The position numbers and the translations under genes are program-made. From Torpedo marmorata (taxonomy: Eukaryota), in NCBI GenBank assembly GCA_977017645.1, contig OZ360220.1, positions 185,690,001 to 185,754,000 of the forward strand: DNA of 64,000 nucleotides, given 5' to 3'. Shown piece by piece: positions 6,695 to 44,439 of this stretch; position 1 is the stretch's first letter; every line of letters begins with the position of its first letter. Under the pieces are notes generated by a model, which made no database searches, had not been told where the DNA came from, and saw nothing but the letters and a program-made list of their open reading frames with translations.

Positions 6695-6824
6695 TCAGTT
6701 TGTCGTTTCTGCTTGGAGGAACGGTTCACTGATGAAGTTTAAACTGTAATTCTGAACATTTGTTGGCAGGATGGTAGTCCCATTCGACACTTGGAATGGG
6801 ACCAAGCTAGCCCAAGTACCAGGA
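6695..6824 (-). CDS. NFIB: NFIB terminal exon, long frame (S)PGTWASLVPFQVSNGTTILPTNVQNYSLNFISEPFLQAETTN* (used when the 89-nt exon is included)
   Basis: ORF track 6695..6889(-) contains this peptide downstream of the acceptor at 6825-6826. It matches the recalled long NFIB C-terminus SPGTWASLVPFQVSNRTPILPANVQNYGLNIIGEPFLQAETSN, and the phase fits AG|T = Ser. Confidence 0.93.
6807..6824 (-). CDS. NFIB: NFIB terminal exon, short frame SWYLG* (used when the 89-nt exon is skipped)
   Basis: Polypyrimidine tract and acceptor ttttttctctccgcag|TCC TGG TAC TTG GGC TAG. SWYLG is the known C-terminus encoded by the last NFIB exon. Confidence 0.95.
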   Translation of the reverse strand, partial: SWYLG

Positions 6825-10310: not shown

Positions 10311-11260
10311 CTGTATATTTCGGCGTATAAGTCGAGTCTTGAAACCCTCAAAAATCTCTCAACAAACGGGGGTCAACTTATACGCCGGATATACTTTTGA
10401 GACCTTAAAATCAGCTCAAAAACCAGTCCACACTGATTCGGCGTATGTCGACCCTTGAAAACACGATACGGCGTATAAGTCGACCCTTGAAAAACAACAA
10501 GACATTTAGAACCCTTCAAAATCACTTTCGCTATCATCGTCTGAGGCAAAGATCTCGGCAAGCACATCCGGGGTCTCACTGTTTAAACAGTCATCGTACG
10601 GGTCCCAGTCTGTATCTGATGAGGCGTCTTCAGCTTCGTCATCAGTGTCCCACAATAAATCATCTCCCGTACCATCAATTGCACAAGAGATACCGCACTT
10701 TTTAAACAATTTTATTATAGTCTCTACTTTCACTTTGTCCCATGCCTTGAGCACGAAGTCACACAGCACATCAAGCGATGCAGCACGCATTGCCCCGCCT
10801 TTTGTAAATGATTTTTCTGCACTCGTCATCCATGTATTCCACTCTTCACGCACGTGGTCTTTGAATGGCTTGTTCAAGCAGACATCGAGAGGTTGCAATA
10901 TAGACGTCAAACCACCCGGGATAACCGCCATGTAAGTATTATGTTGTGCTAATCACCCCCAGCCAATGCCCAGCAGCTCAATCAGCGCGATCGTTGTGGG
11001 TCGACCTATACGCCGGTCAACGCCCAGCAGCTCAATCATCGCGATCGTTGTGGGTCGACCTATACGCCGGTCAACGCCCAGCAGCTCAATCATCGCGATT
11101 TTTGGGGGTCGACTTATACGCCGGTCAATGTGCAACATCTCAGGCATCGCGATTTTTGGGGATCGACTTATACGCCGGATATACAATAAAACCATTAAAA
11201 TGAGGCTGAAAAAGGGGGGTCGACTTATCTGCCGGTCAACTTATACGCCAAAATATACAG
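10311..11260 (-). mobile_element. Non-autonomous pogo/Tc2-like DNA transposon retaining the transposase C-terminus
   Basis: TIRs CTGTATATTTCGGCGTATAAGTCGA / TCAACTTATACGCCAAAATATACAG with TA TSD. ORF 10506-10931(-) IPGGLTSILQPLDVCLNKPFK is the DDE_1 third-Asp motif followed by an acidic tail. Confidence 0.92.
10969..11180. repeat. 54-bp tandem repeat (~4 copies) inside the pogo element
   Basis: cccagcagctcaatca..gcgatc..gggtcgacctatacgccggtcaacg recurs at 10969, 11023 and 11077, with a degenerate fourth copy. Confidence 0.9.
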
Positions 11261-14768: not shown

Positions 14769-15775
14769 CCGTATATTATGGCGTATAAGTCGAGTCTTGA
14801 AACCCTCAAAAATCTCTCAAAAAACAGGGGTCGACATACGCCGGATATACTTTTAAGACCTTAAAATCAGCTCAAAAACTACTCCACGCCGATTCGGCAT
14901 ATGTTGACCCATGAAAAACCGATTTGGCGTATAGGTCGACCCTGGAAGCACCTCCCCACCGCTGCCGCTCCCCGACATTACCCCACTACCGGGCGCCGCC
15001 ATAAACCACCCAGACATTCTACAATTGTACAGCCCAAGATCCCCGCTCCTACCCGGGAGCCTGAGGTCGCCGCTCCTGCCCGGTAAGCCGAGGCTCCTGG
15101 CCGGTAGGGTGAGGGTCCCGCTCCCGCCACGTAGCCCGAGTCAGTTCCCGACCTGCCGGGAGAACGAGGTCGCCACTCCTGCCACGTAAGCCGAGGTCAC
15201 CGCTTCTGCTGAGGAGAACGAGGTCGCCGCTCCTGCCCGGGAGAACGAGGTCGCCGCACCTGCCCGGGAGAACGAGGTCGCCGCACCTGCCCGGGAGAAC
15301 GAAGTCGCCGCTCCTGCCCGGGAGAACGAGGTCGCCGCACCTGCCCGGAAGAATGAGGTCACCGCTCCTGCCCGGGAGCCGACACATAGCCGTGGTTCCT
15401 GCACCGAGCACACTTGAGCAGCGAGGCGACTTTTTCGATGCGGACGGCGCTGCACCCGATATGGAGAATGGAGTCGCTCGTCGCCGACTCTGGCTGCAGC
15501 CGAAGCTGAAGACTTGGACCCAGCTCCGTTTGGCATCTTCCCGGCCAGAAGCAAAGGTTTTTTTTACTTTTTTTTTTACTTACTTGCTTAATTTACAGCT
15601 TTGTTACTTGGTGATTGGGGTGTTGTAACAAATTTTGGGTTGTTGCTGGGAGGCCCGGACAGCCCGAAAATTGGGGGTCGACTTATACGCCGGATGTACA
15701 ATAAAACCATTAAAATGAGGCTGAAAAAGAGGGGTGGACTTATCCGCGAGTCAACTTATACGCCAAAATATACGG
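14769..15775. mobile_element. Second non-autonomous pogo/Tc2-like element, same termini as 10311-11260, GC-rich interior
   Basis: TIRs CCGTATATTATGGCGTATAAGTCGA / TCAACTTATACGCCAAAATATACGG with TA TSD. About 170 bp at the left and 110 bp at the right are shared with the first copy. Confidence 0.92.
15040..15380. repeat. GC-rich 27-bp minisatellite inside the second pogo element
   Basis: gagaacgaggtcgccgc(t/a)cctgcccgg repeated with period 27 (15241, 15268, 15295...). Confidence 0.9.
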
Positions 15776-20772: not shown

Positions 20773-22646
20773 TTAGCAGAAACCGGGAAAGACGATGTTA
20801 ATGCCATCTGGCTGGAGAGTGCCCAGACGGAAAATCAGGTGTTGTTCCTCCAATTTGTGGGTGGTCTTGGTGGGATAGTACATAAGGCCATGGACAGACA
20901 TGTGAGTGTGGGAGTGTGACACAGAACTGAAATGGTTGGCTACTGGGAGGTCTCTGTCTCTGGTGCAGACGGAGCGAGGGTGCTCAGCGAAGCGATCTCC
21001 CAATCTGCACCCAGTCTCTCCGATGTAGAGAAGGCCACAAAGGGAGCACCGGATGCAGTAAATCAGTCCTGCGGATACACAAGTGATACACAGTTTGGAG
21101 CCCCGGACCGTGGTGAGGGGGGAGGTGTGGGCACAAGTGTTGCACCTCCTGCGTCCACAGGGGAAGGTGCCGGGGGGGAGAATGGTGGGGAGGGATGAGT
21201 GCTCGACAGAGTCATGGAGGGAGCGGTCCTTATGGAAGGCAGAAAGGGGAGGAGAGGGGAAGATGTGTCTGGTGGTGGGATCCTGATGTAAGTGTCAGGA
21301 ATTCCGGAGGATAATGTGTTGGATGCGTAGGCTGGTGGGGTGGTAGGTGAGGATAAGGAGGATTCTATGTTTGTTGCGTCTGGGGGCAGATGAGTGGGAA
21401 GTGGAGGGGAAGCCACGTTTGTGGAAGAAGGCAGTCATTTCGGAAGATCTGGACTGGAAGACCTCATCTTGGGAACAGATGCGGTGGAGATACAGAAATT
21501 GAGAGAAGGGGACAGAATCCTTGCAGTGGACAGGGTGTGAGGAAGTGTAGTCAACGTAGTTGTGGGAGTTAGTGGGCTTTTAATATATGTCAGTGGAAAG
21601 CATGCCTCCCGAGATGGAGACAGAGAGATCCAGGAAGGGAGAGTGTTGTTGGAGATGGACCAGGTGAGTTTGAGATCAGGGTGGAAGTTGGCTGCGAAGT
21701 GGATGAAGTTGACAAGCTCATCGTGGGTGCGTGAGGCAGCCCCGATGTAGTCATCGATATACCGGAGGTAGAGTTGAGGGGTCTTGCCTGCGTAGGCTTG
21801 CAGCATGGATTGCTCCACAAAGCCCACAAACAGGCAGGCGTAGCTGGGACCCATGCAGGTACCCATGGCTACTCCTTTGATTTGGAGGAAGTGAGACGAG
21901 TTAAAGGAGAAGTTGTTTAAAGTGAGGACAGGTTCTGCCAGGCGGAGGAGGGTAGTGATAGAGGGTGACTGTTCGGGTCTCTGGTCCAGAAAGAAGCGAA
22001 GTGTTTTAAGACCTTCTGTATGGGGGATGGAGGTATAAAGGTATTGGACATCCATCGTGAAGATGAGGCGGTCCAGTTCGGGGAATCTGAAGTCATTGAA
22101 GAGATGGAGGGCATGTGAGGTATCGCAGATGTAGGTGGGGAGGGATTGGACCAGGGGAGAAAAGATAGAGTCAAGGTAAGATGAAACTACCGGTAGTTCG
22201 GTGGGACAAGAGCAAGCAGAAACAATGGGTCTACCCAGATGGTTAGGTTTGTGTATCTTGGGTAGAAGGTAGAAACGAGCAATGCGGGGATGGGAGACAA
22301 TGAGGTTGGCGGCCGTGGGAGGGAGGTGACCAGAGGTGATGAGGTTGGAGATGGTGTTGGAGACTGTGGCTTGATGTGTAGTGGTAGGGTCCTGTGGGAA
22401 GGGTAGATAGGAGGAGGTGTCTGAGAGCTGTCGTCTGGACTCAGCAAGGTCAGAGCGCCAGACCACAACAGCACTACCCTTATCTGCGGGTTTGATGGTG
22501 AGGTTGGCATTGTTGCGGAGAGCAGAGCGTTCGGAGGAAGTAAGATTAGAATACGAGAGGGGAGTGGTGAAGTTGAGATGGTTGATGTCTCGGCAGCAGT
22601 TGGAAATAAAAAGGTCCAGAGCGGGCAGCTGGCCAGGACGAGGTGT
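20773..22646 (-). pseudogene. Frameshifted Penelope RT/GIY-YIG ORF
   Basis: ORF pieces 21435-22652, 21063-21416 and 20773-21003 lie in different frames. Confidence 0.9.
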
Positions 22647-22890
22647 CTCCAACCAGATGGCATTAACATAGACTTTTCCAGTTTCTGCTAACCTGCTCTT
22701 CTCTTCTTCCTCCCTCCTTCCCTTCCCCTTTCCAGTTCTCCTCCCTCCCTTTCACCTCCCTTCACCTAGCCATCCCTCCTCCCCTTGATCGCTGCTGTCC
22801 CCTCCCTCCCTTCTCCACCTATCACCTCCTGCCTTTGCGACCACACCTCCCCCCCTTACTCTTTTGCTCGGACGCCTGCCGACATTTTTC

Positions 22891-33013: not shown

Positions 33014-35873
33014 TTGGCAGGGGGTGGGAATCAGTATGAGAATGCGGAGATTAGGGTAGATTTGAAGGAAGAGAGGAACCAGAATGTTAAAGTTAATGAA
33101 GGAGAGGGTAATCAAAGGAGTGTATATGGGGGACATTCTTTCAAGTGTATATATTTCAATGTAAGGAGCATTGTAAGAAAGGTGGATGAGCTTAGAATAT
33201 GGATTGATACATGGAAATATGATATTGTAGCCATCAGTGAAACTTGGTTGCAGGAGGGGCATGATTGGCAGCTAAATATTCCAGGATTCTGTTGTTTTAG
33301 GCATGATAGAACAGGGGGGATAAAAGGTGGAGGAGTTGCATTGCTTGTTAGAGAAAGCATTACAGCGGTGCTATGGCAGGATAGATTGGAGGGCTCGTAG
33401 AGTGAGGCTATTTGGGTAGAATTGAGGAATGGGAAGGGCATGAAAACACTAATAAGTGTGTATTATAAACCACCTAATGGGCAGTGGGAATTAGAGGAGC
33501 AAATTTGTAAGGAGATAGCATATATGTGTAATAAACATAAGGTGGTGATTATAGGAGATTTTAACTTTCCACACATTGACTGGGACGCCCATACTGTAAA
33601 AGGGCTGGATGGGTTAGAGTTTGTCAAATGTGTTCAGGAAAGTTTTCTAAATCAATACAGAGAAGAACCGACTAGAGAGGGGGCAGTATTGGATCTCCTA
33701 TTTGGGAATGAGATAGGTCAGGTGACAGAGGTTTGTGTTGGGGAACACTTTGGGTCTTGTGATCATAATACCATTAGTTTTAGGTTGATAATGGAGAAGG
33801 ATAGGGCTGGGCCTAAGGTTGAGATTCTTGATTGGAATAAGGCAAATTTTGAGGAGATAAGAAAGGATTTAGAGGGTGTGGATTGGGATAATTTATTTTT
33901 AGGGAAATAAATAGATAAATGGAGGATATTCAAAGGGGAAATTTTGAGAGTACAGAGTCGGTTCGTCCCTGTGAGGATTAAAGGAAGAGTTAGAAAATAT
34001 AGGGAGCCTTGGTTTTCAAAGGATATTGGGAATTTGGTTCGGAGGAAGAGGGATGTGTACAACAGGTATAGACAGCAGGGAATAGATGAGGTCCTTGAGG
34101 AATATAAGGAGTGTAAAAAAAAATCTTAAAGAAATTAGAAAGGCTAAAAGGAGATATGAGGCTGCTTTGGCAGGCAAGGTAAAAATAAATCCAAAGGGTT
34201 TCTACAGGTACGTTAAAAGTAAAAGAATAGTGAGGGATAAAATTGGGCCCATTGAGGATCAGATGGGTAGGCTATGTGAGAAGTCAGAGGAGATGGGGGA
34301 AATTTTAAATGAATTTTTTTCTTCAGTATTTACAAAGGAAAGGAATATTGAGCCAGGTGAAGTAAGGAAATCTGGCAGTGAGGTCATGGATAATATAAAG
34401 ATTAATGAGGAGGTAGTATTGGCTATTTTAAAGAGTATAAAGGTAGATAAATCTCCAGGTCCTAACAGGATATTCCCGAGGACTCTGAGGGTCCTGACAG
34501 AAATATTTAAAATGTCACTGGCTACGGGGGAGTTGCTGGAGGATTGGAGGGTAGCTCATGTTGTGCCACTGTTTAAAAAAGGCTCCAAAAGTAAACCTGG
34601 AAATTATAGGCCTGTGAGTCTGACATCGGTGGTGGGTAAATTAATGGAGAGTGTTCTTAGAGATGGTGTATACAGTTATTTGGAAAGACAAGCATTGATT
34701 ATGAGTAGTCAACATGGCTTTGTACGTGGTAGATCATGTTTAACAAATCTCATAGAGTTTTTCGATGAGGTTACTAAGAAGGTTGATGAGGGGAAGGCTG
34801 TGGATGTTGTCTATATGGACTTTAGTAAGGCATTTGACAAGGTTCCGCATAAGAGGCTAGCTAGGAAGGTTCAAGCATTAGGTATTAATGTCGAAGTAGT
34901 GAAATTGATTCAACAATGGTTGGATAAAAGATGCCAGAGAGTAGTGGTGGAAAACTGTTTGTCAAATTGGAGGCTGGTGACTAGTGGAGTGCCTCAGGGA
35001 TCGGTACTGGGTCCATTGTTGTTTGTCATATATATTAATGATCTAGATGATAGGGTGGTAAATTGGATTAGTAAGTATGCAGATGATACGAAGATTGGTG
35101 GTGTTGTGGACAGTGAAGAGGGATATCAAAGCTTGCAGGGGGATATAGGACAGTTAGAAGAGTGGGCTGAAACATGGCAGATGGAGTTTAATACTGATAA
35201 ATGTGAGGTGCTACATTTTGGTAGGACTAATCAGCAAAGGTCATACATGTTAAATGGAAGACAATTGAGGAGTGCAGTAGAACAGAGGGATTTAGGAATT
35301 CTGGTACATAATTCCCTGAAAGTTGAGTCACACGTAGATAGGGTGGTGAAGAAAACATTTGGAATGTTGGCCTTCATAAATCAGAGTATTGAATACAGGA
35401 GTTGGGATGTCATGTTGAAGTTGTATAAGGCATTGGTGAGGCCAAATTTGGAATATTGTGTGCAGTTTTGGTCGCTGAATTATAGGAAGGATATAAACAG
35501 AATAGAGAGAGTGCAGAGGAGATTTACAAGAATGTTGCCTGGGTTTATGGGTTTGAGTTACAGGGAAAGGTTGAGCAGGCTGGGACTTTATTCCCTGGAG
35601 CGTAGAAGGTGAGGGGTCAACGTGAACAGGCTTTTTCCATTGAGAGTGTGGAAGATTCAAACACGAGGGCATGGATTGAGATTGAAGGGGGAAAAGTTTA
35701 GAGGAAACATGAGGGGGAATTTCTTCACTCAGAGGGTGGTGGGAGTGTGGAACGAGCTTCCCGCCGAAGTGGTAGATGCAGGTTCAATTTTAACGTTTAA
35801 GGAAAAGTTTGTTAGGTATATGGACGAGAGAGGTGTGGAGGGTTATGGGCCGGTTGCGGGTCAGTGGGACTAG
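33014..35873 (+). pseudogene. CR1 ORF2: APE endonuclease + reverse transcriptase (stops at ~33398 and ~33908, frameshifts, small deletions)
   Basis: YFNVRS, ISETWL, GDFNFP, LDLLF, CDHN; NYRPVSLTS, QHGF, MDFSKAFDKV, GVPQGSVLGP, YADDTK. Confidence 0.95.
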
Positions 35874-36902
35874 GTAGGAGAAGGTGTTCGTCATGGACTA
35901 GAAGGGCCGAACTGGCCTGTTTCTGTGCTGTAATTGTTATATGGTTCATGAAAGGGAAACCATAAATGTCAAACCTTCTGAGGTTTACAGAGAAGTGGAT
36001 ATAGTGAACTTGTACTTTCAAAAGGGCATGCCGCATAGAGCTTTTCTCAAGATACAGGCTCATATAGTCAGAAGATAATATCGAGTACTGGTGCAAGAAA
36101 GAAGATAGAGGTAAGGAATAAATAGGTTGTTCTCAGATTAGCAGGGTATTACTAGAAGGCTGGAGCAGGAATCAGGGTCCTTGTTACTTGCAGTCAATGT
36201 TATTGAGTGGGCGGCCAAAATAGTGGTGGCTGGAATATGTTGCGGGATTTGTGTGAAATCATTCACTTTATATCTCTCTCTGGTGGGAAAACAGTGACTA
36301 GCAGCACTCATAAGGATATGAGGGTTTATTTCCATGTAATACTTACGAAGACACATTTTCTTATGTGCACTTAGAAAACACTTAATCACCTTCAGTGCTT
36401 CACCCAAACAGCTGGTTGATCTGGGGATCATGTATTTGTATGCCTGTCCAGATCAATTTGATATAGTAATTTGCCATACTACTACATCATTAACTTTGAT
36501 TAATGATATTTTAAACACTTACGTGCAATGATAAAATCAGTTAAAAGAAATTAAAGTGGAGCTCATGTAATTATCCCCTAAGTTGCATTTATCTCTCTCT
36601 ATAAAATATAGATCAAGATAGAATAAAAGAAAAGGCAGAACAGTATACAGGTACACCCCACTTTACGAATACTCAAATTACGAAAATTTGCTTTTACGAA
36701 GAAAGCCGTGTTCGCTTTTACAAAAGGGTTTTCGCATTTACGAAAAATGTGAGCCGATATAGAGGCTGCGCGCGCATCCCGAGGCTGCGCACGCACCTCG
36801 AGCAGCTCCTTCCCCGGGAACTACGCCCAGCATCAAGGCTTTGAACTGTGACTGTGAGCATCTGTGCTTTATCTCGATTTATATTGTGCATCCGTTAGCA
36901 GG

Positions 36903-39900
36903 ATGTGTCCCAAGGTATTGGAAAAGCCTAAGAGAGCTCGTAAGGGTGTTACGCTTACTGTAAAACTTGACATAATTAAACGTTTGGATCGCAGTGAACG
37001 AAATAAAGACATTGTGCGTGCGTTGAACCTGCCTGCGTCCACCATTCGTACTATTTACAAGCAGAGAGAAAAAAATCTTGAAAGCTGCCGAAGTTACTAT
37101 TGGTTCTGCTAGCAACAAAGTGATCTGTTTTAGTCGACATCCAGTAATGGAGAAAATGGAAAGTCTATTATTTGAGTGGATTGATGGGTGTACAATGTGT
37201 AGTGTTCCATTAAGCTATCTTATACTTAAGGAGAAATCAGTCACTCTTTTTCATAAACTGAAACAGAAAGCACTGGGCAATCGTGATGAAAGTGTTGCGA
37301 AAATGGAATTTAAAGGTAGTCATGGGTGGTTTGATCGATTTTTGAGGCGAGGGCAGCTTCATAGCTTAAAGTTTACTGGAGAGAGTTGCTTCGGCTGATA
37401 CTAAAGATTACTGGAGAGAGTTGCTTCGGCTGATACTAAAGATTACTGGAGAGAGTTGCTTCGGCTGATACTAAAGATTACTGGAGAGAGTTGCTTCGGC
37501 TGATACTAAAGATTACTGGAGAGAGTTGCTTCGGCTGATACTAAAGTTTACTGGAGAGAGTTGCTTCGGCTGATACTAAAGATTACTGGAGAGAGTTGCT
37601 TCGGCTGATACTAAAGATTACTGGAGAGAGTTGCTTCGGCTGATACTAAAGATTACTGGAGAGAGTTGCTTCGGCTGATACTAAAGATTACTGGAGAGAG
37701 TTGCTTCGGCTGATACTAAAGATTACTGGAGAGAGTTGCTTCGGCTGATACTAAAGATTACTGGAGAGAGTTGCTTCGGCTGATACTAAAGTTTACTGGA
37801 GAGAGTTGCTTCGGCTGATACTAAAGATTACTGGAGAGAGTTGCTTCGGCTGATACTAAAGATTACTGGAGAGAGTTGCTTCGGCTGATACTAAAGATTA
37901 CTGGAGAGAGTTGCTTCGGCTGATACTAAAGATTACTGGAGAGAGTTGCTTCGGCTGATACTAAAGATTACTGGAGAGAGTTGCTTCGGCTGATACTAAA
38001 GATTACTGGAGAGAGTTGCTTCGGCTGATACTAAAGATTACTGGAGAGAGTTGCTTCGGCTGATACTAAAGATTACTGGAGAGAGTTGCTTCGGCTGATA
38101 CTAAAGATTACTGGAGAGAGTTGCTTCGGCTGATACTAAAGATTACTGGAGAGAGTTGCTTCGGCTGATACTAAAGTTTACTGGAGAGAGTTGCTTCGGC
38201 TGATACTAAATATTACTGGAGAGAGTTGCTTCGGCTGATACTAAAGATTACTGGAGAGAGTTGCTTCGGCTGATACTAAAGATTACTGGAGAGAGTTGCT
38301 TCGGCTGATACTAAAGTTTACTGGAGAGAGTTGCTTCGGCTGATACTAAAGATTACTGGAGAGAGTTGCTTCGGCTGATACTAAAGATTACTGGAGAGAG
38401 TTGCTTCGGCTGATACTAAAGATTACTGGAGAGAGTTGCTTCGGCTGATACTAAAGATTACTGGAGAGAGTTGCTTCGGCTGATACTAAAGTTTACTGGA
38501 GAGAGTTGCTTCGGCTGATACTAAAGATTACTGGAGAGAGTTGCTTCGGCTGATACTAAAGATTACTGGAGAGAGTTGCTTCGGCTGATACTAAAGTTTA
38601 CTGGAGAGAGTTGCTTCGGCTGATACTAAAGATTACTGGAGAGAGTTGCTTCGGCTGATACTAAAGTTTACTGGAGAGAGTTGCTTCGGCTGATACTAAA
38701 GATTACTGGAGAGAGTTGCTTCGGCTGATACTAAAGATTACTGGAGAGAGTTGCTTCGGCTGATACTAAAGATTACTGGAGAGAGTTGCTTCGGCTGATA
38801 CTAAAGATTACTGGAGAGAGTTGCTTCGGCTGATACTAAAGATTACTGGAGAGAGTTGCTTCGGCTGATACTAAAGATTACTGGAGAGAGTTGCTTCGGC
38901 TGATACTAAAGATTACTGGAGAGAGTTGCTTCGGCTGATACTAAAGTTTACTGGAGAGAGTTGCTTCGGCTGATACTAAAGATTACTGGAGAGAGTTGCT
39001 TCGGCTGATACTAAAGTTTACTGGAGAGAGTTGCTTCGGCTGATACTAAAGATTACTGGAGAGAGTTGCTTCGGCTGATACTAAAGATTACTGGAGAGAG
39101 TTGCTTCGGCTGATACTAAAGATTACTGGAGAGAGTTGCTTCGGCTGATACTAAAGATTACTGGAGAGAGTTGCTTCGGCTGATACTAAAGATTACTGGA
39201 GAGAGTTGCTTCGGCTGATACTAAAGATTACTGGAGAGAGTTGCTTCGGCTGATACTAAAGATTACTGGAGAGAGTTGCTTCGGCTGATACTAAAGATTA
39301 CTGGAGAGAGTTGCTTCGGCTGATACTAAAGATTACTGGAGAGAGTTGCTTCGGCTGATACTAAAGATTACTGGAGAGAGTTGCTTCGGCTGATACTAAA
39401 GATTACTGGAGAGAGTTGCTTCGGCTGATACTAAAGATTACTGGAGAGAGTTGCTTCGGCTGATACTAAAGTTTACTGGAGAGAGTTGCTTCGGCTGATA
39501 CTAAAGATTACTGGAGAGAGTTGCTTCGGCTGATACTAAAGATTACTGGAGAGAGTTGCTTCGGCTGATACTAAAGTTTACTGGAGAGAGTTGCTTCGGC
39601 TGATACTAAAGATTACTGGAGAGAGTTGCTTCGGCTGATACTAAAGATTACTGGAGAGAGTAGCTTCGGCTGATACTAAAGATTACTGGAGAGAGTTGCT
39701 TCGGCTGATACTAAAGTTTACTGGAGAGAGTTGCTTCGGCTGATACTAAAGATTACTGGAGAGAGTTGCTTCGGCTGATACTAAAGATTACTGGAGAGAG
39801 TTGCTTCGGCTGATACTAAAGATTACTGGAGAGAGTTGCTTCGGCTGATACTAAAGATTACTGGAGAGAGTTGCTTCGGCTGATACTAAAGTTTACTGGA

Positions 39901-42693
39901 GAGAGTTGCTTCGGCTGATACTAAAGATTACTGGAGAGAGTTGCTTTGGCTGATACTAAAGATTACTGGAGAGAGTTGCTTCGGCTGATACTGAAGATTA
40001 CTGGAGAGAGTTGCTTCGGCTGATACTGAAGATTACTGGAGAGAGTTGCTTCGGCTGATACTAAAGTTTACTGGAGAGAGTTGCTTCGGCTGATACTAAA
40101 GATTACTGGAGAGAGTTGCTTCGGCTGATACTAAAGTTTACTGGAGAGAGTTGCTTCGGCTGATACTAAAGATTACTGGAGAGAGTTGCTTCGGCTGATA
40201 CTAAAGATTACTGGAGAGAGTTGCTTCGGCTGATACTAAAGATTACTGGAGAGAGTTGCTTCGGCTGATACTGAAGATTACTGGAGAGAGTTGCTTCGGC
40301 TGATACTAAAGTTTACTGGAGAGAGTTGCTTCGGCTGATACTAAAGATTACTGGAGAGAGTTGCTTCGGCTGATACTAAAGTTTACTGGAGAGAGTTGCT
40401 TCGGCTGATACTAAAGATTACTGGAGAGAGTTGCTTCGGCTGATACTAAAGATTACTGGAGAGAGTTGCTTCGGCTGATACTAAAGATTACTGGAGAGAG
40501 TTGCTTCGGCTGATACTAAAGATTACTGGAGAGAGTGCTTCGGCTGATACTAAAGATTACTGGAGAGAGTGCTTCGGCTGATACTAAAGATTACTGGAGA
40601 GAGTTGCTTCGGCTGATACTAAAGATTACTGGAGAGAGTTGCTTCCGCTGATACTAAAGATTACTGGAGAGAGTTGCTTCGGCTGATACTAAAGATTACT
40701 GGAGAGAGTTGCTTCGGCTGATACTAAAGATTACTGGAGAGAGTTGCTTCGGCTGATACTAAAGATTACTGGAGAGAGTTGCTTCGGCTGATACTAAAGA
40801 TTACTGGAGAGAGTTGCTTCGGCTGATACTAAAGATTACTGGAGAGAGTTGCTTCGGCTGATACTGAAGATTACTGGAGAGAGTTGCTTCGGCTGATACT
40901 AAAGTTTACTGGAGAGAGTTGCTTCGGCTGATACTAAAGTTTACTGGAGAGAGTTGCTTCGGCTGATACTAAAGATTACTGGAGAGAGTTGCTTCGGCTG
41001 ATACTAAAGATTACTGGAGAGAGTTGCTTCGGCTGATACTAAAGATTACTGGAGAGAGTTGCTTCGGCTGATACTAAAGTTTACTGGAGAGAGTTGCTTC
41101 GGCTGATACTAAAGATTACTGGAGAGAGTTGCTTCGGCTGATACTAAAGATTACTGGAGAGAGTTGCTTCGGCTGATACTAAAGATTACTGGAGAGAGTT
41201 GCTTCGGCTGATACTAAAGATTACTGGAGAGAGTTGCTTCGGCTGATACTAAAGATTACTGGAGAGAGTTGCTTCGGCTGATACTAAAGATTACTGGAGA
41301 GAGTTGCTTCGGCTGATACTAAAGATTACTGGAGAGAGTTGCTTCGGCTGATACTAAAGCTGCCGAAAAGTTCCCAGAAGAACTGAAGAAAATAATCACA
41401 GAAGGTGCTTATTCGCATAATCAAGTGTTCAACTGTGACGAAACTGCAATTTATTGGAAAAAATTGCCGAGCAAGACATTCATTTCAATGGAAGAAAAGC
41501 AGGCTAAGGGACACAAGGCATCGAAGGTCAGGTTTACCCTAATACCTATTATTAACGCCACTGGTGATGCTGTTCTTAGGTCTCTAAAGGTGTAGCATTC
41601 AGAAAATCCGACGGCACTTAAAAGCATTGATAAGTTTACGCTTCCTGTTATGTTTCGTTCACATCCAAGCAGTTGGAATATCCAAGTGATTTTCTCCGAG
41701 TACATAAGTGGATACGTTAGTCCTTTTATTGAAAAATACTGTAGAGAAAATCGCATAGATGATAGGTGACTTGTGATTGTTGATAATTGTGCTGCTCATC
41801 CACCTGGCATTACCGAGATTGGTGGTAACATTTGTGTTGTGTTCTTACAGCCGAATACGACGTCGTTGCTGCAACCATGTGACCAAGGCCTAATAGCCAC
41901 AATTAAGTCTTACTACACGCAAAGTGTGATGCGTTTTATTACAGAGAGGGCAACTCCGAAGCATCTTTGGGAGAGATCTGGAAAGATTACAATATAAAAT
42001 TGGCAATCGGCAACCTTGGAGATGCTCTCGATAGGCTAACAGTCTCGATGAGAAATGGCGTTTGGAGGAAACTGTGTCCCGAAGCAGTGAACGATTTTCA
42101 AGGCTTCGAACCAACAACAATAAATACGAAAATAGCGAATCTGACTAAGGAGGCTGGGTTTGTGGAAGTTGACGAAGATGATGTTGAAGAGGTTTTGGCA
42201 TCCCATGACTAAGAACTGACAGATAAAGACCTGATGCAATTGGAAGAGGAAAGGATACCAATCGAAACTGAACGCAATAGCGAACGGCCCGAAAGTGAAG
42301 TCGTCCAGGAACTGAACGTGAAGCACTTGCGTGCGATTTTTGCCACGATTGACAATGCTGCAATGATTGCAGAAAAGTATGACTTTAATTTTGAAAGGGC
42401 ACGTAGGTTTAGAGCAACTTTGCTGGATGCTTTGAGTGCCTACAAAGAACTGTATGATAGCAAAACGTGTGAGGCTAAGCACTCAAGCATACTGTCATAT
42501 TTCAAGCCTTCCATACCAGCCACAGCAGACGACAAACCTCGACATCGAGGCAGGCAGACATAGAAGGTGTAGATGTTAGTGACCTGACAGATTCAGACGA
42601 CAATGAGATGTCAATAGATGACCCTATTCCTCTCTCTCTTACATCCCAGTCTCCTGTACCTCCCACCACCCCAACCTCCGAAGACTCAGCCTA
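36903..42693 (+). pseudogene. CENP-B/Tigger-like transposase pseudogene (two HTH domains + DDD catalytic domain)
   Basis: KLDIIKRL..LNLPASTIRTI; MESLLFEWI..FKGSHGWFDRF; after the array QVFNCDETAIYWK, IVDNCAAHP, LQPNTTSLLQPCDQG. Multiple stops and frameshifts. Confidence 0.93.
37371..41358. repeat. 35-bp minisatellite/satellite array, 114 units, derived from transposase CDS
   Basis: Unit g(a/t)ttactggagagagttgcttcggctgatact(a/g)aa. 3988 bp = 112x35 + 2x34. Confidence 0.98.
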
Positions 42694-44439
42694 ACTACAC
42701 TGTACATACATTATTTCTACTTTATAGGCTGTGTATTAATGTGTATTAATCATATTGTTCCTGCTTTTAATAAATGTTAGTGTTATTTTATGTTTTGTGT
42801 TATTTGGTATGATTTGGTAGGTTATTTTTTGGGTCTGGGAACGCTCAAAAAATTTTCCCATAGAACTCAATGGTAATCGCTTCTTTGCTTTACGCCATTT
42901 CAGCTTACGAAAGGTTCCGTAGGAACGCTCTAGTTTCGTAAAGCGGGGTATACCTGTTATAGAAATAAGACAAATTAAATTACTTCTCAGTTGCATGCAG
43001 TAGCAAGGGTTTGATGCATGCCTCACATGAAGTTTAACAATTTCCAGGTAATGTTCAACTTTCACCATCAGCATATGCCAGCAGGTAGCTGGTCTTCCAT
43101 CACTGCTAAAGGTAAATGTAAGAACATCCAAAATAGTCCATTAAATCATTTGATTTGACAAATTGTCTAATATTTTCTTTCGGACCCTCCAAGTTAACGT
43201 CACAAAGTTAACATGCAGCTCCCTTGTGCTGTTCCCTTACTCTTGATGTCATCCGATTGATGGAAGGTGGCCCCTCATGTTTTAGAATTGTCCTGCGGCT
43301 TCTTTGCTATGGACTAGCCTGTCCTATCACTGATCTTGCATGGTTTCAATAGTCAAGTTCAACTAGCTTTTAAAACGTAATTTTGAACAGTCTCTGGTGT
43401 GCAGTTTGCAAAATAAAATTGGATTTTCTCTCTCCACTAATTTCTATAGACTTTTTAAAATTCTGTACACTGTATGGTATTTATTTGCTCTTTCTTTACT
43501 TTCAATTTCATATGGAAGTTTTTTTTTAAACAAATGAGAGCAAATGAAAGAAATGCACTTAAGCAGTTGCTTCCAAGTGAATAAAGTGGGTTGGGAAAGA
43601 GTGATACAGAAATTATTTTTGCACCCTTTGGCTCAACAAGATATTCCTGAGAAGCAAAAGCATGTACAAAATAAATGAATGCTAAATTATGAGAACAGGT
43701 TTCTCTTCAATTATGAGTCAATGGGACTTTACTCAGTATTGAAAATGCATTTGAGAAGAACCAAAGAGGTATACATTAAGATTTATTGTGGAACACATAA
43801 TCTTTGATAATGGCTAAGCCTGTTAGAATCATGTAGCTTTGCACAGAGCAATGCAGGAACAAAACCTGGACAACTATACAGAATGAGACTTGTCTGAATA
43901 AGGATACGCGAGGAAATGTAAAATGTGACGAATTCAAGATTGAAAAGGGGAAATCTGGTATCTGCTACCAGCTCTAACACAACTACAATTAATTTTTGGG
44001 AGCTACAGTTCAAATTCCTTCTGCAGCCTTAACCAATAAAGCTAACAACTAGCATAATAATTATGGTCCATATTTATAAAGTCTGGTCTGTGCCCTCTTC
44101 CTTGACCTCAACAATCTTGTTTGCCTTCATGAACATCTCCACTCAGTCTATGCACAAGGTGGATGGCCAAACTTGCTCAAACCTTTCGAACTCTCCGACA
44201 TATCCAACACATCCACTGCCTTCCATCATCACTGCTCCATTTCGAGAATCCTGTTCTTTATTCCATAAGGCCATTCTTCTGCTGCTCCCTTAGGCAGAAA
44301 CATCCCAAACACGAAATGGATGGATCGTCAGGAGGTTTCTTTGTTTTGCTGCTTACTTACACAAATTAATGAAAGTGGAGTTATAAATGAACACCCTTTA
44401 TAAAAGGAAGTAACTCCCAAACAAAAAGCTGCATCAGGT

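Follow-up and report, generated by a model that had tools for sequence, protein, structure and literature searches.

Minisatellite arrays of one transposase linker segment, and a one-base hot spot within it, in a dead Tigger/pogo family of Torpedo marmorata

We analysed 64,000 nucleotides of the Torpedo marmorata genome (contig OZ360220.1, positions 185,690,001 to 185,754,000 of the forward strand; hereafter the window, whose own numbering is used throughout), in which a minisatellite at 37372-41359 on the plus strand is built from the linker sequence of a dead Tigger/pogo transposase. The same linker segment is tandemly repeated in nine copies of this transposon family, the array-bearing copies are not one clade, and one base of the repeat unit is extraordinarily unstable in this genome. 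We consider it somewhat probable that breaks or stalls focused on the unit, repaired partly from other family copies and followed by local expansion, lie behind this pattern, whose value is family-wide more than in the window array alone.

The family comprises at least 40 distinct linker-containing copies (denoted by L and a number where they need to be told apart); 40 out of 70 candidates were scored in one DNA search and 40 out of 2,019 in another, and we left out L030, which duplicates L029, L056 and L057, whose stretches lack the linker, and six partial left-end matches ending before the linker. The family majority sequence has a single 34-bp unit in a 634-amino-acid open frame, as expected from a preliminary description of the window, made from its letters alone, in which the 34-bp unit was taken as the ancestral in-frame state. 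That description also placed the linker correctly, but the F and K residues it gave are derived, since the family majority reads KITGESASADTEAA. A single unit is found in 31 of the 40 copies and at least two units in the other nine, with 2, 7, 8, 10, 25, 49, 61, 114 (the window) and about 400 units (13.6 kb), respectively. All nine arrays consist of the same linker segment with the same unit ends, and nowhere else in the element does a segment reach more than 3.4 copies in any of the family members. A genome-wide search for the array junction, allowing one mismatch, returned 604 forward and 41 reverse matches, which is the number predicted from the nine arrays, so that no other array with this junction exists in the assembly. 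The preliminary description had proposed a unique local birth of the window array and a genome search with its unit; the eight further array-bearing copies thus found, together with the apparent import of at least one array (see below), rule out such a unique origin. The other possibility it had raised, that the family consensus already holds the array, fails on the single-unit state of the 31 copies.

The unit ends were likewise thought to form a TAAAG microhomology. This is present at the window copy, with the left array junction at 37367-37371 (plus strand), but the ancestral unit end is TGAAG and the identity arose by G31A in the sub-lineage of the window copy. The ancestral match is only T-x-AAG (four of five bases), the perfect 5-bp end repeat being confined to copies with A31, and it is not needed, as seven of the nine arrays end mostly in TGAAG. 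We rejected a perfect TAAAG as the trigger, arrays being equally common in the two classes (7/30 copies with G31 and 2/10 with A31). In some arrays a private base is carried by nearly all units, namely C20G in L015, T19C in L024 and A31 in the window. The largest array, to which L041, L042 and L020 all belong (C2:23,894,4xx-23,908,0xx), has 40 unit types, a 59-unit block duplicated at a lag of 63 and an 8-unit block present three times.

In the window, the array has 114 head-to-tail units in 3,988 bp, of which 112 are of 35 bp and two of 34 bp, a count that agrees with the preliminary one; the 34-bp pair lies at 40522-40589, its earlier placement at 40511-40578 being another phase. Tandem Repeats Finder (TRF) reported a period of 35, 114.1 copies, 98% matches and a score of 7769, the next-best array of the window scoring 319. 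With units in the range of about 10-100 bp and an array of kilobase scale, this is a minisatellite. The earlier word satellite overstates a 4-kb array of 35-bp units: all nine arrays total 675 units, or 23 kb, of a 6.2-Gb genome, which is not a classical satellite. Nor is a CENP-B box satellite convincing, since the best match in the unit has 7/9 essential bases of the box, for which we estimate a chance of about 1 in 10 at such a unit length. Eighty-four units are of one identical major type, 21 are a variant starting with T (the first unit among them), four read CTGAAG and four are singletons; these variants agree with those first described, except that the CpG is lost in two units, by C>T in one and G>C in another (40625-40659), rather than in one. 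The exact dimer of the major unit occurs at this locus only. The assembly contains one haplotype of it, and copy number may vary between individuals, as first suggested. Alignment of the units revealed no long higher-order blocks of the kind that had been suggested as worth seeking (best block score 11, against 136 in the L020 array). A31 is found in 110 of the 114 units, as in the sub-lineage of the copy, and the array thus appears to have been amplified mainly from its own unit. The four CTGAAG units (plus strand, 39962-40031, 40242-40276 and 40835-40869, within a zone of 39962-40869) carry the family-ancestral G31, and the two neighbouring 34-bp units (plus strand) have the ancestral single T at position 15; both match family states and may be remnants, reversions by back-mutation or imported patches. 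The singleton changes number four in 3,990 bp (0.1%), compared with a 2.8% non-CpG divergence of the flanking element, so the last turnover of the array is much younger than the insertion of the element, in line with the earlier view of a recent amplification long after the element had died.

An extra T at unit position 15 (ancestral T) is present in 111 of the 114 window units, and it had been described as a feature of this array, yet it recurs in other arrays and in single-unit copies. The doubled T (+T) is found in 12 of the 31 single-unit copies and seven of the nine arrays, and T>A in four of the 31 and again seven of the nine; in the two-unit array L013, one unit has +T and the other T>A. 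In the rest of the element, 32 one-base insertions are spread over 25 sites, with a maximum of four copies at one site (an A-run). As a control we used a long interspersed nuclear element (LINE) with the same 10-base context, GAGAGAGTGC, in which +T occurred in 4 of 18,507 exact-flank matches, a set that favours young copies, and T>A in none of the 100 matches listed. This rules out a generic error at the GA run or an error of assembly context. Sequencing errors are also an unlikely source of the position-15 states because the identical context reads TT in 84/86 units of the window array but in 0/67 in L020, and because the duplicated 59-unit block of L020 repeats its position-15 pattern in 59/59 units, including 8/8 minor states, and yet differs elsewhere. 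An assembly or base-calling artefact at large would find some room in the sequencing runs, six of which contained 0.10-0.28 of the query words and none half of them, with no array-spanning reads seen, and the copy numbers may be wrong; against the same three results, however, we regard such an artefact as hardly credible. The approximately 400-unit array retains T at position 15 in 295/399 units (about three quarters), and seven arrays have more ancestral T in their right half, one has less and one is tied, a weak polarity.

In a tree of the copies built without the unit, in which most inner branches are weak, two subfamilies of 8 and 32 copies are separated with a support of 100/100, and both contain arrays. 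The array state requires nine changes on this tree, of which the starred branches alone force at least four, and a single clade of array-bearing copies is rejected by the approximately unbiased (AU) test (p=5.7e-5). The array-bearing copies are therefore not one clade, and with 31/40 copies having one unit we also rejected the array as an intrinsic element feature of the DINE-1/Xmix type. The +T state requires 11 changes and G31A four. One could still suppose that the templates of transposition already carried a dimer or +T and that the present states reflect descent and losses: +T is found in six of the nine copies of the window's sub-lineage (marked at +368/+375), G31A is clearly inherited, as its four changes and its presence in other organisms attest, and the tree is poorly resolved. 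We hold this to be very improbable, for T, +T and T>A all occur in both subfamilies, the dimer of L013 carries two different derived states, A31 contigs of another organism are without +T, and one clade is rejected. Within the sub-lineage of nine, A31 is found in seven copies, L006 and L048 being the exceptions. Four copies, L007, L020, L022 and L054, make up a third group, a mosaic or intermediate lineage whose subfamily-1 background carries several bases of subfamily 2; L055 belongs to subfamily 1. L029 and L030 (C31:185.61 and 185.78 Mb) represent an inverted segmental duplication about 168 kb apart and share one copy whose 5' truncation point lies immediately before the unit; +T is read in both.

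The clearest traces of transfer between loci concern L006 (C2) and L021 (C1), two subfamily-1 copies on different chromosomes that have the same odd 32-bp first unit, and both of which contain 28-bp units. Beside the array they have -31C, which occurs in no other subfamily-1 copy and otherwise in three subfamily-2 copies; it is the only rare element variant common to the two, with a chance of 1 in 465 for a given pair. Given the shared first unit and the foreign flank base, at least one of these arrays was likely copied in from another locus. Both loci lie near 124.24 Mb, and homologous or duplicated regions were rejected as an explanation since their 9-10 kb flanks share short repeat matches only. 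L006 also carries the subfamily-2 base -34G, without the subfamily-2 markers further upstream, and has G31 in all units although its nine-copy sub-lineage is mostly A31. L048, of the same mostly-A31 sub-lineage, has +T, G31 and a flank base in common with the array L024. These patterns are what short conversion tracts with the unit at their centre would leave. Less clear cases of transfer are L017 and L045, both arrays with the same 8-bp flank deletion, and L013, which has A1G, a variant otherwise seen in subfamily 2.

Contigs of three other organisms hold the family. A complete indel table of their 18, 18 and 31 contigs contains neither +T nor the go-back joint, and T>A was absent anywhere on the compared stretch in two of the three, so that +T is likely lineage-specific. 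If the 16 pieces listed over the site in two runs are separate copies, 0/16 with +T has p=4e-4 at the rate of this genome. G31A is present in other organisms too. A further variant, G21A, which makes the hairpin of the unit perfect, makes up roughly half the depth at this site in two of the other organisms (L022:1488) and is found in one of the 31 single-unit copies here.

The identical ends at nine loci, the lack of common descent, the recurrence of +T and T>A and the absence of any other segment above 3.4 copies all point to a break-and-repair hot spot in the linker segment that would be specific to this lineage. The initiator, which is the least supported step, might be a factor active only in this lineage that cuts or stalls at position 15. 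A first duplication could then arise by slippage between the T-x-AAG ends, as in the Haber-Louis type of model. At L006, and probably at L021, the array start was most likely copied from a donor of subfamily-2 type by interlocus gene conversion, in the form of synthesis-dependent strand annealing (SDSA) on an ectopic template or a circle. The window array would have grown mainly from its own A31 unit, by slippage or unequal exchange, at a time that is recent compared with the insertion. A bolder version is a homing minisatellite, in which a lineage-specific activity cuts one linker base and repair from copies on other chromosomes spreads arrays, together with cut-resistant +T and T>A alleles, without transposition. 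We regard this version as possible but rather unlikely; if true, the repeat would spread by itself, with dead transposons for landing pads, and a vertebrate would have a germline nuclease target not known so far.

Several observations weigh against a break-and-repair hot spot. No peak of GC-biased conversion was seen when weak-to-strong and strong-to-weak changes were compared by distance, with small counts near the unit, and the substitution rate beside the unit is not raised. The higher sharing across subfamilies near the unit (14/26 against 67/243, p=0.012), which speaks for the hot spot, was measured over an interval chosen post hoc. Most single-unit copies with +T or T>A are without a co-converted donor marker, and 5/5 changed A31 single-unit copies retain A31; many position-15 changes could therefore be fresh mutations. 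The fixation of a private base across several arrays (L015, L024 and the window) fits local birth, an intact donor of the L006/L021 array was not found, the inner branches of the tree are mostly weak, and no spanning reads were seen for any array. The comparison with other organisms relies on short-read contigs of uncertain kinship to this genome, in which rare variants are lost and tandem arrays are poorly represented. Finally, no SSXRD (PRDM9) match was found in the genome, a weak test with a 31-position model in 6 Gb.

The last point bears on a more specific form of the break-and-repair model, in which the unit would hold a PRDM9-type binding motif that makes each copy a meiotic recombination hot spot. 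Arrays would then mutate in the manner of human hypervariable minisatellites, and conversion would drive +T and T>A as alleles that destroy the motif. The PRDM9-minisatellite and PRDM9-THE1 hot spots in humans are precedents, and both the lineage specificity and the focus of ectopic conversion on the unit would fit. We nevertheless find this form improbable, since, besides the missing SSXRD match and GC-bias peak, the changes fall on one base instead of being spread over a motif, and about three quarters of the units in the longest array (295/399) keep T.

A quite different explanation invokes independent births by replication slippage at a hairpin, where a polymerase pause at the stem base gives +T and T>A, slippage between the T-x-AAG ends starts a separate array in each copy, and the shared variants are parallel errors. 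In the family majority the unit is bracketed by a 10-bp inverted repeat (left arm at 37352-37361, plus strand, from folding), inside which GCTTCGG and CTGAAGC form a stem whose base abuts position 15/16; at -6.3 kcal/mol the unit ranks third among the non-overlapping 30-nt folds in the element (0.4% of windows of that size fold more strongly), T15A and the G16T of L021 lengthen the stem, and private bases are fixed across some arrays. The model of short flanking repeats on which it draws is established, as far as the accessible parts of PMC6947457 and PMC3389668 go. However, G31A breaks the stem, also weakening the partner arm in the window copy, and position 15 is changed in 5/8 copies with the broken stem and 11/23 with an intact one (p=0.69); the two longest arrays are mostly stem-broken, other organisms have the same sequence without +T, and neither the all-G31 array of L006 nor its -31C/-34G flank is explained. 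Hairpin slippage is accordingly a minority candidate in our estimate, to be taken seriously but not expected to hold.

The host element in the window extends from a TA target-site duplication at 36646-36647 (plus strand) and a left terminal inverted repeat of Tigger/pogo type at 36648-36669 (plus strand), which matches the reverse complement of 42935-42956, to the right terminal inverted repeat at 42935-42956 (minus strand), after which the TA is altered to TT; both sides have TA in the other copies shown. Its assignment to Tigger/pogo is based on the combination of helix-turn-helix (HTH) and DDE_1 domains, which full-length relatives also possess, short inverted repeats starting with CAG, the TA duplication and copies in unrelated flanks on many contigs. 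Left of the array, the 5' part of the dead transposase open reading frame (ORF; 36903-37371, plus strand, with a frameshift near 37068) matches the Pfam families CENP-B_N (PF04218, 1e-10) and HTH_Tnp_Tc5 (PF03221, 1.5e-4), and right of it the 3' part (41360-42563, plus strand) matches DDE_1 (PF03184, 4e-9) and contains stops at 41593, 41767 and 42210 and frameshifting deletions near 41940 and 42538. The preliminary description was therefore right that the array lies between the HTH and DDE domains of a dead CENP-B-like transposase, that the unit is the transposase's own linker sequence, and that the flanking ORF is degraded, with three stops, three frameshifts and about 4% difference from the family majority. 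The 5' part is 81% identical to a Mobula protein and 77% to a Hypanus protein. The closest named proteins are Tigger/pogo transposases of batoid rays, from Mobula hypostoma and Hypanus sabinus (the latter 'TIGD1-like'), with 90-91% identity to the family majority protein and the same single-unit linker, a comparison covering annotated proteins only. In the Mobula hypostoma protein (1,626 aa), the first 578 residues are the transposase (90% identical to the family majority), followed by GTF2I repeats (PF02946), so that it is either a host-transposase fusion or a merged gene model.

Minisatellites are known to arise recurrently from one segment of a transposable element (TE), examples in the accessible text of PMC9659126 and PMC6947457 being the mouse B1-derived (GGCAGA)n loci with variable numbers of tandem repeats (Bois 1998) and the MaLR-derived Ms6-hm and Hm-2 (Kelly 1994). 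Alu-derived minisatellites have been described by Jurka and Gentles 2006 (in the same two sources) and by Ahmed and Liang 2012 (PMC3389668). In the available part of PMC3389668, such arrays formed after insertion at several loci from the same repeat segment, short direct repeats flank the unit and some TE regions are hot spots, all of which resembles our family. Here, by contrast, the source is the coding linker of a cut-and-paste transposase whose family numbers about 40 copies; arrays with identical ends occur in 9/40 copies, a single base has a roughly 1,800-fold +1 excess, and one array has a foreign flank tract. The Rsp-like satellite, which spread into 1.688 clusters in Drosophila simulans and D. 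mauritiana and for which interlocus conversion or circle reintegration was proposed (Sproul et al. 2020, PMC7403614), is similar in that, in the portion of that paper at hand, arrays appear at distant loci already holding homologous sequence, in a lineage-specific manner. In that case an unrelated repeat arrives at satellite clusters of a single chromosome (same source), whereas here the landing sites are single-unit transposon copies on at least five chromosome-size contigs and the repeat is their own segment. Class II elements with internal tandem repeats, namely the Helitron DINE-1, Xenopus Xmix/Xstir and miDNA4 and bivalve Pearl miniature inverted-repeat transposable elements, also contain tandem arrays that vary among copies; in the accessible text of PMC9659126 their arrays are mobilised with the element, unlike those of our family, where the family majority and 31/40 copies are single-unit and the array copies form no clade.

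Our literature search, whose coverage excluded most subscription papers, found no report of such arrays in Tigger/pogo coding regions or in cartilaginous fishes. The kind of event is known; what appears to be new is the combination of many arrays in a small family with ends that stay fixed, a hot spot of one base and an import tract that can still be seen. How a single sequence turns into a minisatellite is still an open question, and a mechanism could be assigned for only 6% of TE-derived tandem repeats (Ahmed and Liang, in the accessible part of PMC3389668). Here a single genome holds 40 near-identical loci of one family (31 single and nine arrays of 2 to about 400 units), whose ancestral state is known and for which other organisms provide controls; birth, import and growth of arrays can be compared in them as in a replicated experiment. 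Judging from the hot spot and the foreign flank tract, an array may be able to pass from one dead transposon copy to another on a different vertebrate chromosome, and position 15 is a precise place to search for germline breaks.

The array lies in the final intron (about 68 kb) of an NFI-family gene, exons of which were recognised in order on the minus strand on both sides of it. These are the coding part of the terminal exon at 6807-6824 (SWYLG-stop, with a good acceptor), which we take to be the NFI terminal exon, and, outside the window but on its scale, an upstream exon placed by exon order at 74729-74814 and an exon matching Pfam CTF_NFI (PF00859, E=1e-11) at 79183-79324. The earlier placement in an intron of a developmental transcription factor is supported to this extent, and the paralogue is presumably NFIB, which we assume to be dosage-sensitive. 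The nearest exon found is about 30 kb from the array. Splice, motif and Pfam scans within the window (40 segments in one of them) missed the gene, which was found when 100 kb were added on each side.

Other repeats in the window include a second pogo-type remnant at 10506-11178 on the minus strand (DDE_1, E=5e-11) with a 54-bp x 4 tandem repeat next to it, a further array inside or close to a DNA transposon, and a GC-rich 27-bp x 8.4 tandem repeat at 15152-15378 that is open in several frames. There are also two reverse-transcriptase frames, one of 508 aa, open, at 34086-35612 on the plus strand, which we take to be CR1-like, and one of 438 aa with a GIY-YIG-like tail at 20773-22751 on the minus strand, presumably of the Penelope type.

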